Notes under the pieces: generated by a model | Told to the model about the DNA's origin: nothing | Databases searched by the model: none | The model's input: only the letters and a program-made list of their open reading frames with translations | Source of the DNA: Polyangiaceae bacterium | GTDB taxonomy: Bacteria > Myxococcota_A > Polyangia > Polyangiales > Polyangiaceae | Assembly (NCBI GenBank): GCA_016715885.1 | Contig: JADJXL010000022.1 | Location: forward strand, 139,588-203,587 | Length of the DNA: 64,000 nucleotides | Direction: 5' to 3' | Position numbers and translations under genes: made by a program | Shown: piece by piece, positions 57,559 to 60,583 of the stretch | How positions within the stretch are numbered: the first letter of the stretch is position 1 | How the letters are laid out: every line of letters starts with the position of its first letter

Positions 57559-58254
57559 ATGCTGCCATGGAGATCCCTTTCTCCTTTCCCCGCGACTCCG
57601 GTATGCTCCGCGCCCAGCGTGGAACGGTCGATAGGTGTCTACGGTGAAGAAGTGCTGCTCTGGGTCTGCGCGTTGCGACAATCACCGCGCCGTCCGTCTC
57701 CAGAGCATTTGCTGCACCAAGCAAATACGCTCTTGAACGAGCTGAAGATCTCGAAGGCCTCGGACGCACTTCCCGTCGTGTCCGCCGACGATGGTCAGTT
57801 TGCCATCGCGGCGCTCATCGACGAAATCGCGATGGGTTTTCCCGATCTGCGGCCGCTCTGGTCACAATACTCGCTTCAGGCAACGCGGTGGAGCACCACG
57901 AACGCCGGCGTTGAGTTCTACCAGCGGCTCGATCGCGTCAAGCAAGGCCCGCGTAATGTCTTGGCGACGTATTACGTCGTGCTGGGCCTCGGCTTCCTCG
58001 GTCGCTTCGGTTTGCCTGGAGCGGTCCAGTACGGCGCGACGCAGACGCGCATCGATATCGCACGCATCTTGGGCGTCGATCCGGATCGCGACTGGCACGC
58101 CGGAGCACTTCGTCCCGTTCGCGAAGAGGCCGTCACACCCATCGCGTTCCAGGTGCCTTGGTATCGGTCCTTGTGGATGGGCCGCGGCATTGCTCTGTTG
58201 ATGCTCCTCTTCGGCGCGGCGCTGCTCGTATCAGCGCTTTCGCGGGGGTCCTGA
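57559..58254 (+). CDS. DotU/TssL-family protein (cytoplasmic domain plus C-terminal TM helix).
   Basis: DotU-like signatures are [13 protein letters not shown] and [16 protein letters not shown] (compare LEvYYlCLaLGFeGrY). A C-terminal TM helix is present ([18 protein letters not shown]). The start is uncertain. Confidence 0.55.
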
Positions 58255-59339
58255 TGAGCGGCGAAGGCGGACCGTTTGCGGCAGAAATCGACGCGATGCT
58301 CGCGGCCGTCGCGCGCAAGCATCCCGACAAGAAACCTCCCTACCAAGTCCCCGTTTATCTCGTCGTCGGTGATCCCGGTTCGGGCCGATCGACTGCCATT
58401 CGATCGCAAATGGTCACGTGGTCTTCGGGCGATGGACCTCTTCCGCCGGCATCGACGACTCCATTTTGCACGTATTGGATGGCGGACGAGGCGGTATTCA
58501 TCGAACCCGAAGCGCACGTCATGGGTCCGCGTCGCGATCCGGCCATGCTCCAAGCATTGTGTGAAGAGCTCATTCGCAAAAGGCCACGCGAACCGCTCGA
58601 TGGCATTCTGCTCGTCCTCAATGCCACCGTCTTTGCCGACGCCGACGAAGCCAATGTGCAAGCCTATGCGAAGGGCATGCGTGAGATCCTCGTCGAAGTC
58701 GGGCGTCATTTGGGCGTCGACGTGCCGACGTACGTGTTTCTCACGAGGCTCGATACGCTTTGGGGATTTGCGGACGTCTTTGCTTGGACGCCGGAACGCA
58801 ATCGCGAAGACCCGTGGGGTTTTACATTGCCGCAAGAAACGGCTGCCGTCGATGCTCTTCCCAAAATCAAAGAAGAAATCGACGGCCTTCATGCCCGTTT
58901 TGAAATGTTTTGCTTCGCCAAACTTTCCGGTGAAGAGCCTGTCGAGACGCGTATTCGATCCTATCAGCACCTCGTCGAAGTGCGGGAATTCCTCGACCGT
59001 GTGCGCGTGCTTTTCAATGTTTTGGCCATGGCAAACGCCTACGAACGAGTGCCCTGGTATCGAGCGCTCGCGATTGGTAGCGCATATCCCGGCATAGGCG
59101 ATCGTCAACGAGCGGGCGTCGGCAAATTCCAAAGCATGGGTCTTTATCCGCCGCCCGTACCGCAAGGAATGCGTCCCGGTGGTTTGCCCATTCATGCGCT
59201 CGTCAAGACCGTCGTTTTACCAGAAAAAGACCTCGTGCCTTTGCGCGTGCGCTGGCGTGACGATCTCGTGATTTGGATCATCGCGGGACTCGCTGTCCTC
59301 GTGTGGATCGTCGCGATCATCGTCGCCGCCACGCGATGA
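58254..59339 (+). CDS. IcmF/TssM N-terminal-like P-loop domain protein with a C-terminal TM helix. It lacks the periplasmic TssM domains.
   Basis: Its ATG overlaps the upstream stop (TGATG). Matches to the TssM cytoplasmic domain are PVYLVVGDPGSGRSTAI (compare the TssM sequence PWYLVIGPPGSGKTTLL), DGILLVLNATVFAD and PTYVFLTRLDTLWGFADVF (compare the TssM sequence PVYLVFTKCDLLAGFSEFF). The TM helix is LVIWIIAGLAVLVWIVAIIVAA. Confidence 0.55.
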   Translation: MSGEGGPFAAEIDAMLAAVARKHPDKKPPYQVPVYLVVGDPGSGRSTAIRSQMVTWSSGDGPLPPASTTPFCTYWMADEAVFIEPEAHVMGPRRDPAMLQALCEELIRKRPREPLDGILLVLNATVFADADEANVQAYAKGMREILVEVGRHLGVDVPTYVFLTRLDTLWGFADVFAWTPERNREDPWGFTLPQETAAVDALPKIKEEIDGLHARFEMFCFAKLSGEEPVETRIRSYQHLVEVREFLDRVRVLFNVLAMANAYERVPWYRALAIGSAYPGIGDRQRAGVGKFQSMGLYPPPVPQGMRPGGLPIHALVKTVVLPEKDLVPLRVRWRDDLVIWIIAGLAVLVWIVAIIVAATR

Positions 59340-59401
59340 ATCTTCGCCTGCGGACACCTCGAGGCTTGACGTTTCGGCTCCGCGCGCAATCATGACGACG
59401 C

Positions 59402-60583
59402 GTGGACGATATGGATTTTGGCATCGGTGCTTCGGGCAAGCTCAAGGCTTTTCTGCTGACGGCGCTCGCTGTGTTCATGTCGTCGCTTGCGTTCGGCATC
59501 GTGAGCGCTCCGATGGGCAAGATGCACCCCGTGCTGGGGTTTTTGCTGAAGAGTTTTATTTTGCTCGTGTTCGGGGGCATCTCCGCGTTTTGCATGGGCT
59601 TTGCCATTCAATCGCTGCGCGGAGGACCCAAGCTGCCGCCCGACGTGTTATTGCGCTGCCCCACGTGTGGTGAAAAGACGCCCGGCGACCTCGTTTGTCC
59701 CGTCTGTGGCGAATTGCCGCACGATAGAAAACTCGTCTATCGCATCGAATCCGAGGGGCTGTGGGGGCATGCGATTGGCGCAATCATCTTGGCCGGCGTC
59801 GGGTGCCTTGGGCTCTTCATCATGATTGGCCCGTACCTCGATGGCGAACGTCGATTGTGGGCGCTCATTGCATTCGCTGCGCTCGGCCTCCTCATGCTGG
59901 CCGTTGGTGTCGTTGGCGTTTTTGGTTTTTTATTAATTTTATGGGAAAGAGTTGGAGGAAGTCAAACCATTACGTTTTCCTGCAAAGGTCCTGATCGGTA
60001 TACGCATGGAAGCGGGAAATCGAGGTGGGGAAAGGTCATTGGCCTGGAAGGACACGGCCAAGTCACCGCGCCGCTTGCGCCTCGAGGCCGCAGTGAAGGT
60101 GGTTATCGCGCCGCGCAAGGAGACGTCGAATTGGCCGAAGCGATTGCCACATTCGATGCCGCGGGTATCGTCGACCTTGGCCATGTCACGACGTACGAAT
60201 GGCGAGTGGGTGATCCATCTGGAAAAACCCGGTCAAAGCATCCGGAATTTCATCGCACGATCGATCGCCTGATCATGATGATTCTTTGCAATGTGACGGA
60301 ACCGGTATTCGATCCGGAGGATGATGACGCGGAGATCGATGCGGTTCAGCGTGTTCCCATAGAATCGCCCGACAAGCCCGATTCCGCCATTCTAAGGTTT
60401 CTCGGCAAATTCATTGTCCTACCCATGGACGTTCGAGCATTCAAGAGCAAGCTCGACGCAGACCCGATTCATCGCACGCAAACGATCATGCATGCGCGCG
60501 TATTGCGCGACCGAGGGATTGTCGTATCGAATGAATTGGTGGAGGCGGTGGTGGAAGGGTTTGCTGAGCAGAAGACGGTGTGA
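59402..60583 (+). CDS. Polytopic membrane protein with an internal zinc-ribbon-like loop (CPTCG...CPVCG) and a C-terminal soluble domain.
   Basis: Four hydrophobic helices flank a CxxC..CxxC loop. I recognised no family. Confidence 0.45.
   Translation: MDDMDFGIGASGKLKAFLLTALAVFMSSLAFGIVSAPMGKMHPVLGFLLKSFILLVFGGISAFCMGFAIQSLRGGPKLPPDVLLRCPTCGEKTPGDLVCPVCGELPHDRKLVYRIESEGLWGHAIGAIILAGVGCLGLFIMIGPYLDGERRLWALIAFAALGLLMLAVGVVGVFGFLLILWERVGGSQTITFSCKGPDRYTHGSGKSRWGKVIGLEGHGQVTAPLAPRGRSEGGYRAAQGDVELAEAIATFDAAGIVDLGHVTTYEWRVGDPSGKTRSKHPEFHRTIDRLIMMILCNVTEPVFDPEDDDAEIDAVQRVPIESPDKPDSAILRFLGKFIVLPMDVRAFKSKLDADPIHRTQTIMHARVLRDRGIVVSNELVEAVVEGFAEQKTV

Follow-up and report, generated by a model that had tools for sequence, protein, structure and literature searches.

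What are relatives of two secretion-system proteins doing at a chromosomal locus that encodes no secretion system? The question arises from a 64-kb stretch of DNA from a soil/sludge myxobacterium of the family Polyangiaceae (assembly GCA_016715885.1, contig JADJXL010000022.1; hereafter the window), in which three co-directional open reading frames (ORFs), all on the plus strand, encode a DotU/TssL-like protein (gene 1), a protein consisting of the TssM/IcmF N-terminal domain only (gene 2), and a protein with four transmembrane (TM) helices and a zinc ribbon (gene 3; Table 1). TssL and TssM are regarded as dedicated type VI secretion system (T6SS) parts, and the one known co-option of the two is that by the type IVB secretion system (T4BSS) of Legionella. 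The initial annotation had taken all three genes for a minimal inner-membrane complex derived from TssL and TssM and recruited to a different function. Of that reading, the architecture of the pair formed by genes 1 and 2 and its isolation stand and the membership of gene 3 does not, and a new function is plausible and, as we infer, to be favored. We tentatively propose that the pair is a neofunctionalized, T6SS-independent docking or landmark platform at the inner membrane, derived from paralogues of TssL and of the N-terminal part of TssM.

The family assignments on which this proposal builds come from hidden Markov model (HMM) searches. Gene 1 matches the Pfam model DotU (PF09850) over profile positions 8-198 of 205 with E=3.5e-23 and 82.8 bits (cut-off 27), stays under the cut-off of the NCBIfam model TIGR03349 (78.1 against 89.95 bits) and weakly matches the TssL structures 3u66 and 6y4r, and a hydropathy scan places a single C-terminal TM helix at residues ~208-228 of 231. 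Gene 2 matches Pfam IcmF-related_N with E=1.8e-43 and, on the TssM equivalog TIGR03348, aligns to positions 93-447 of 1168 only, with 148.6 bits against a cut-off of 388. It is made up of a G-domain with a helical extension and, at the C-terminus, one TM helix, so that the TRAFAC-class P-loop GTPase fold and the IcmF-related_N domain followed by the third TM helix (TM3) of TssM are kept. The N-terminal TM1-TM2 hairpin is absent, as the alignment with full-length TssM begins after it and no N-terminal hydrophobic segment is present, and so is the TssJ-contacting periplasmic region (IcmF-related PF06761, IcmF_helical and IcmF_C). The first description of gene 1 as DotU-like with a C-terminal TM helix, and of gene 2 as the cytoplasmic TssM domain with a degenerate Walker A, one TM helix and no periplasmic part, is thus upheld by the Pfam, TIGR03348 and hydropathy results.

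The nucleotide pocket of gene 2 departs from that of canonical TssM throughout the family. Experimentally defined TssM motifs are the Walker A GxxxxGK[ST], the Walker B hhhhDxxG and (N/T)KxD, and in Agrobacterium tumefaciens mutants in either Walker motif lose Hcp secretion (PMC3346141). The corresponding motifs of the short family have shifted from GK[ST] to GR[ST], from hhhhDxxG to hhhExxx and from [NT]KxD to [TSN]RxD. The P-loop lysine is an arginine in 44 of 52 orthologues and is kept in eight deep-branching ones, the Walker B aspartate is a glutamate in all 52, and the G4 lysine is kept in none (49 Arg, 3 Gly); the counterpart of gene 2 in the most divergent orthologous locus (L062) has no P-loop whatever. 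The Walker B equivalent is given by the TssM alignment as FIEPEA (residues 82-87), and the DGILLV segment noted earlier is a separate conserved strand, not the Walker B. Because these replacements are fixed, the nucleotide site of gene 2 is probably altered, slow or non-hydrolyzing, and because every one of them is conservative, it may still bind a nucleotide or another anionic ligand. A search of Protein Data Bank (PDB) sequences with the gene 2 family profile returned P-loop noise only and found no solved TssM cytoplasmic domain.

The pair is widespread within one group of myxobacteria. A distribution scan with one genome per species yielded 52 loci, all from Polyangiaceae (Polyangium, Sorangium, Minicystis, Byssovorax and Chondromyces) or from unclassified myxobacterial metagenome-assembled genomes (MAGs), and in every one a DotU-like gene lies immediately upstream of the gene 2 homologue. 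IPM54_32935, a protein encoded on a 325,804-bp contig of a 'Polyangiaceae bacterium' MAG, matches gene 2 with 100% identity, and the top homologues of gene 2, including those of Minicystis rosea, Sorangium and Chondromyces crocatus, are each 355-399 aa long and carry PF14331 alone. The TGATG at the junction of genes 1 and 2, from which translational coupling had been suggested, has its equivalent in most relatives, an overlap of 1 or 4 nt being present in 46 of 53 loci and a gap of at most 18 nt in the others. In nearly all loci with upstream sequence, including the most divergent one, enolase lies ~2 kb upstream on the opposite strand, and this neighbor marks the locus as core chromosome. Across the 52 species-level genomes the gene 2 orthologues have intact frames of conserved length (~355-385 aa) with many invariant residues, and the ratio of nonsynonymous to synonymous substitution rates (dN/dS) for this gene ranges from 0.06 to 0.10 among members of the Polyangium clade and from 0.3 to 0.4 when Sorangium strains are compared. 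By this comparison of sequences, the pair is under purifying selection and forms a two-gene operon that has been inherited vertically and maintained by selection in a core region of the chromosome, and it is neither an island nor a remnant.

Is the pair simply the TssL and TssM of its host? Genes were called over the whole 64-kb window and essentially every long ORF was scanned against Pfam, together with the 3.8 kb past the window end that are covered by a Logan contig (L001) identical in sequence to the window; in this set no TssA, TssB, TssC, TssE, TssF, TssG, TssK, Hcp, VgrG, ClpV or TssJ gene and no Dot/Icm gene was found. The earlier statement that no core genes of either system surround the pair holds therefore also for these 3.8 kb beyond the window end, and in none of the 53 loci do T6SS genes accompany the pair. 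The description as an 'orphan' is correct for the locus in this sense, but not for the genome, at least in Sorangium. With the TssBC protein of Enhygromyxa as a probe for co-occurrence, TssC was found in Sorangium genomes that also bear the short pair (matches on L063 and L064 are on assemblies outside the 52 loci and allow no inference on co-occurrence). The chromosome of Sorangium sp. So ce131 (CP150455.1) has a T6SS cluster at 7.90-7.92 Mb with TssK, TssL (225 aa), TssM (1237 aa, with all four IcmF domains), TagF, TssB and TssC, and its short pair lies at ~11.82 Mb (L051), ~3.9 Mb away. Since So ce131 carries a canonical TssL and a full TssM elsewhere on its chromosome, the pair is, judged by homology, an additional and very divergent set of TssL/TssM paralogues, and not the only set of the genome.

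The depth of this divergence is evident from several comparisons. In an exhaustive profile search the scores dropped abruptly, from a few short-family clusters at 570-180 bits to canonical TssMs (~1100-1250 aa) at ~150 bits that align over their residues ~100-450. In a neighbor-joining tree of the N-domain, the short proteins of the Polyangiaceae fall outside every canonical TssM sampled, and the metagenomic proteins P0122 and P0128 join them there. While the canonical TssMs of Thiothrix, Sorangium and Enhygromyxa are 37-40% identical among themselves, the short family is ~22% identical to any canonical TssM, the Sorangium short protein and the N-domain of Sorangium's own TssM being 21.6% identical, and gene 1 shares 28% identity with the canonical TssL of Sorangium. 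An origin from a T4BSS was considered and rejected: gene 2 scores 30.6 bits against the T4BSS IcmF model NF038226, for which the cut-off is 1000, and the window scans gave no Dot/Icm genes.

Compared with the canonical TssL and TssM of A. tumefaciens and enteroaggregative Escherichia coli, the pair has the same two families in the same order, tssL then tssM, with a C-tail-anchored TssL and with a TssM cytoplasmic G-domain (TRAFAC-GTPase-like), a helical extension and the TM helix that follows. It differs in that gene 2 lacks both the TM1-TM2 hairpin and the periplasmic IcmF-related, helical and C-terminal (TssJ-binding) domains, in that the Walker A lysine, the Walker B aspartate and the NKxD lysine are all replaced, in that genes for TssJ, TssK, baseplate, sheath, Hcp and VgrG are all missing from the vicinity, and in that both proteins score below the NCBIfam cut-offs for their families. 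According to the predicted topology, the products of genes 1 and 2 would both be C-tail-anchored with nearly all of their mass in the cytoplasm, and by homology with TssL-TssM they would assemble as a hetero-oligomer tethered to the inner membrane. Such an assembly would equal the cytoplasmic 'base' of the T6SS membrane complex, devoid of its periplasmic or outer-membrane-spanning part, and because both proteins would be tail-anchored and would face the cytoplasm, it could not be a trans-envelope secretion conduit. In this assembly gene 2 would be a scaffold, slow or non-hydrolyzing and possibly ligand-binding, rather than an energizer, and the platform would recruit other proteins independently of a T6SS tail, as a membrane landmark analogous to Legionella DotU/IcmF. 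In the Legionella Dot/Icm T4BSS, these two proteins have been proposed to be self-targeting membrane (polar) anchors that recruit another machine (bioRxiv 10.1101/315721), which makes them a precedent for the co-option of TssL/TssM homologues as a landmark outside the T6SS, but Legionella IcmF is full-length (NF038226 has 973 positions), has a periplasmic part and is encoded among dot/icm genes.

The candidate clients of such a platform are the proteins of g5 and g6, ancestral neighbors of the pair that lie beyond a DsbA-like gene downstream of it. They are paralogues, and both combine a CxxC..CxxC ribbon at the N-terminus with one TM helix and a remainder of ~380 aa; at E<=1 they gave only sub-threshold beta-propeller and zinc-ribbon matches to Pfam, with no family passing its cut-off. 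The start of g6 overlaps the stop of g5 by 4 nt, and the gene continues past the window end (L001, 5588-6967). Of the 32 loci with full flanks, 18 have one or the other no more than 10 kb from the pair, and in Polyangium, Byssovorax, Chondromyces and several MAGs both come directly downstream, with the DsbA-like gene in between. In L062, the outer flanks of which are unlike those of the window, the order is enolase on the minus strand followed by the DotU gene, the IcmF-N gene and the g5 and g6 orthologues, the last four co-directional. This arrangement suggests that g5, with g6, is a possible ancestral partner of the pair. A more specific proposal, which we think quite doubtful, would be that the pair is the cytoplasmic half of an envelope module not described before, in which the TssL-like anchor and the TssM-derived pseudo-GTPase form an inner-membrane platform on which the cytoplasmic zinc ribbons of g5 and g6, with their periplasmic beta-propellers, and perhaps gene 3 in this clade, are docked, the base of the T6SS membrane complex being re-used for trans-membrane signaling or assembly outside the T6SS.

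Two other readings of the locus leave the pair either with a third obligate partner or with no function at all. Gene 3 has four hydrophobic helices with a CxxC..CxxC loop between TM2 and TM3, as initially described, and all four cysteines are invariant in its family; its zinc ribbon and its soluble C-terminal domain of ~205 aa are predicted to be cytoplasmic, as genes 1 and 2 are, which would suit a single minimal three-component inner-membrane complex, and so would its position, 62 nt downstream of gene 2 and co-directional with it, in the window as well as three close relatives. Such a complex is nevertheless highly improbable, as gene 3 is detectable only in L001, L002, L003 and L005 and ~48 of the 52 related loci with the pair lack it, its evolution is much faster than that of gene 2 (56-61% identity against ~85% in the same genomes), and there are homologues of it that lie apart from any gene for DotU or IcmF. 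The family has 23 members, none of them annotated; in Polyangium sp. 6x1 the homologue and the pair of that strain lie on separate contigs, the homologue with unrelated genes around it, and a second, on a metagenome contig, lies among FHA and kinase genes. The spacer between genes 2 and 3 has a sigma-70-like hexamer pair, a weak sign of separate transcription that carries little weight since the promoter/terminator scan was near background. Gene 3 was not found at the loci of cultured Polyangium, Sorangium, Minicystis, Chondromyces or Byssovorax, where the DsbA-like gene often comes directly after gene 2, as it does in cultured Polyangium species. From this phyletic pattern, gene 3 has been inserted between gene 2 and the DsbA-like gene in one clade only and lies outside the conserved unit, and the coupling to the pair that had been assumed for it is not supported; the three-gene complex is largely refuted as a conserved system and could survive only as a clade-specific add-on. 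The C-terminal domain of gene 3 gave only sub-threshold matches to Pfam at E<=1, and an AlphaFold2 (AF2) model (predicted local distance difference test score, pLDDT, 76) had no informative fold match. That genes 1 and 2 are instead the decaying, functionless remnant of a lost T6SS or T4BSS cluster might be thought from the truncated TssM, the altered nucleotide motifs and the lack of partner genes nearby. We find this hardly credible, as reading frames of conserved length are kept intact throughout the 52 species-level genomes, dN/dS lies between 0.06 and 0.4, coupling and many invariant residues are conserved, and the score against the T4BSS model is far below its cut-off.

A stronger alternative, although still a rather unlikely one, is that the pair remains in the service of the T6SS as a trans-acting accessory or regulator, which would bind TssK, TssG, TssE, Fha or TagF and would nucleate, position, sequester or gate assembly outside the channel. 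Both proteins come from T6SS-specific families, a full T6SS is present in pair-bearing Sorangium So ce131 and, by matching chromosome length, in So ce176, and T6SS homologues have been reported in Polyangiaceae and Minicystis bins (PMC11821767). A short pair can also persist as a component of a T6SS cluster, as in Candidatus Thiothrix sp. Deng01, where one lies between TssK and a Ser/Thr kinase. Against this stand the absence of T6SS linkage in 53 loci, the low identity to the canonical proteins (22% for TssM and 28% for TssL), and the alteration of motifs that are needed for Hcp secretion in A. tumefaciens (PMC3346141), and the Thiothrix pair, a recent local duplicate that is not orthologous, is a weak analogy. 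We tentatively favor T6SS-independent docking because the pair is constantly apart from T6SS genes, because it diverges extremely from canonical TssL and TssM, because its nucleotide pocket is remodeled, because it is conserved family-wide at a housekeeping locus, and because the T6SS cluster of the same genome has a complete TssL and TssM of its own. For the pair we infer complex formation, lost or altered nucleoside triphosphatase (NTPase) activity, a docking function and independence of the T6SS. Several observations weigh against this interpretation. The K-to-R, D-to-E and K-to-R replacements are conservative and could leave a working but altered NTPase, and the eight deep-branching orthologues still have the P-loop lysine; action in trans on a T6SS is possible, given the systems in Sorangium and the homologues in the Polyangiaceae and Minicystis bins. 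Furthermore, in 14 of the 32 full-flank loci the 10 kb around the pair contain neither g5 nor g6, and in Sorangium the two are inverted and 8-10 kb away; such a linkage, real but loose, may reflect function or may be mere synteny of a core chromosomal region.

The Thiothrix case also shows what a truncated pair looks like when it has arisen inside a T6SS cluster. In Candidatus Thiothrix sp. Deng01, a 374-aa protein of the TssM N-domain only (P0315, on L058) follows a short DotU in a full cluster comprising TssG, ClpV, Fha, TssK, the short pair, a Ser/Thr kinase-cytochrome c fusion, TssL-OmpA, full TssM, TagF and PP2C. Like the Polyangiaceae pair, it has no N-terminal hairpin, ends after TM3 and has a stop/start overlap with the preceding short DotU. 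It differs as a recent tandem duplicate, 58.6% and 66% identical to the neighboring full-length genes, that retains intact motifs (GKT, DTAG and TKMD), has a DotU without a TM helix and is embedded in a T6SS cluster. To judge from these identities, the Thiothrix pair is not orthologous to the Polyangiaceae family, and truncated pairs can arise independently. The part of the T6SS cluster with this tandem partial duplication spans positions 9319-17704 of JAYMYJ010000093.1, and the TM-less DotU has 231 aa.

The family is already named in the NCBI and JGI databases, as 'type VI secretion protein IcmF/TssM N-terminal domain-containing protein', 'type VI secretion system protein' or 'ImpL/VasK', and these names rest on domain homology only. 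Literature searches found no paper that describes the short pair as a distinct, conserved, stand-alone and motif-remodeled unit; papers on ECF sigma factors and Ser/Thr kinases in which both Sorangium and the T6SS are named do not bear on it. If our proposal is correct, the pair would be a second, independent re-use of the TssL/TssM module, one that involves the cytoplasmic portions only and coexists with a complete T6SS in the genome, which would be moderately surprising for T6SS specialists. The T6SS membrane complex is still poorly resolved at its cytoplasmic base, as is the part played by the TssM NTPase, and for this reason the pair, as a natural minimal complex of TssL and cytoplasmic TssM, could serve as a tractable structural and biochemical model. 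The automatic label 'type VI secretion system protein' should not be taken to imply a T6SS at the pair locus.

Table 1. Positions in the window of the pair, its motifs and its neighboring genes.
Feature	Positions	Strand	Basis or remark
Gene 1, DotU/TssL-like C-tail-anchored inner-membrane protein	57559..58254	+	Pfam DotU
Gene 1 C-terminal TM anchor	58180..58242	+	hydropathy; ~3 residues beyond
TGATG stop/start overlap of genes 1 and 2	58252..58256	+	sequence
Gene 2, TssM/IcmF N-domain-only protein, 361 aa	58254..59339	+	Pfam IcmF-related_N
Walker A/G1 equivalent GDPGSGRST, P-loop Lys to Arg	58368..58394	+	alignment
Walker B/G3 equivalent FIEPEA, Asp to Glu and Gly to Ala	58497..58514	+	aligns with hhhhDxxG (LLDTAG)
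G4 equivalent LTRLD, Lys to Arg	58740..58754	+	aligns with (N/T)KxD of canonical TssM
Gene 2 C-terminal TM helix, equivalent of TssM TM3	59265..59333	+	protein ends 1-2 residues later
Gene 3, four-TM zinc-ribbon protein	59402..60583	+	hydropathy and CxxC motifs
Enolase, divergent from pair, conserved left neighbor	56216..57490	-	adjacency in nearly all loci with upstream sequence
DsbA-like thioredoxin-fold protein, convergent with pair, frequent right neighbor	60590..61480	-	Pfam Thioredoxin_4 and DSBA
g5, zinc ribbon, one TM helix and probable periplasmic beta-propeller	61526..63025	+	TM scan; sub-threshold matches
g6, g5 paralogue of the same architecture, continues past window end	63022..64000	+	459 aa in L001

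The alignment of orthologues also bears on the beginning of gene 1. Conservation starts at 'VE-SIGV(Y/F)GEE', from which the conserved start is probably the GTG at 57619 (211 aa) and not the ATG at 57559 (231 aa), where the gene calls of both the window and L001 begin. The sequence 5' of this GTG (57491-57618) is without orthologue conservation, so that the divergent intergenic region between enolase and gene 1 is probably ~128 bp instead of 68 bp.

A further orphan relative of TssM is P0130, a 995-aa protein with IcmF-related_N and IcmF-related domains to which, among full-length relatives, the short family is closest in profile score (L055, GCA_965187955.1, CBCZBZ010000985.1, 3313-6300); no DotU or T6SS gene was found within ~3 kb upstream or 10 kb downstream of it. 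In Enhygromyxa salina (L060, PVNK01000074.1, 8872-11097), TssB and TssC are fused in a single sheath protein of 741 aa (VipA, VipB and VipB_2), and this fusion recurs in related Nannocystaceae matches.

Downstream of the pair, the DsbA-like gene and the unannotated membrane proteins g5 and g6 are followed by genes for a DUF6748 protein and an acetyltransferase, and the other neighbors in the window are an RNA-recognition motif (RRM) protein, a Usp protein, a PHP-domain protein, a Bat/VWA/DUF58 operon, peptidases, giant TPR proteins and a STAND NTPase. A defense-system reading of the locus was rejected, as no PADLOC family of anti-phage defense matched gene 1, 2 or 3 at E<=1. The RRM-domain RNA-binding protein (55634-56110) ends in a C-terminal tail of ~70 residues that is nearly all Gly with Arg and Asp, and its place beside enolase is conserved in loci of Polyangium, Minicystis and Sorangium. 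A MoxR-type AAA_3 ATPase at 29363-30439 (-) and a DUF58/BatA/VWA gene series at 44197-51598 (+), which includes a 1075-aa VWA and GATase1-like protein, form a Bat-like aerotolerance-type operon that is split across the window. Three TPR-repeat proteins of ~1400-1700 aa are encoded at 8720-18644 (-) and 19398-23570 (+), the one on the plus strand starting with a Zn_ribbon_4 domain. The STAND/NACHT-type NTPase (32210-35890, +) has 1227 aa, with NACHT and nSTAND matches in its N-terminal part and the remainder unannotated, and a secreted-type fungalysin (M36) metallopeptidase of 1466 aa at 1949-6346 (+) carries PA, MAM-like and PKD domains.

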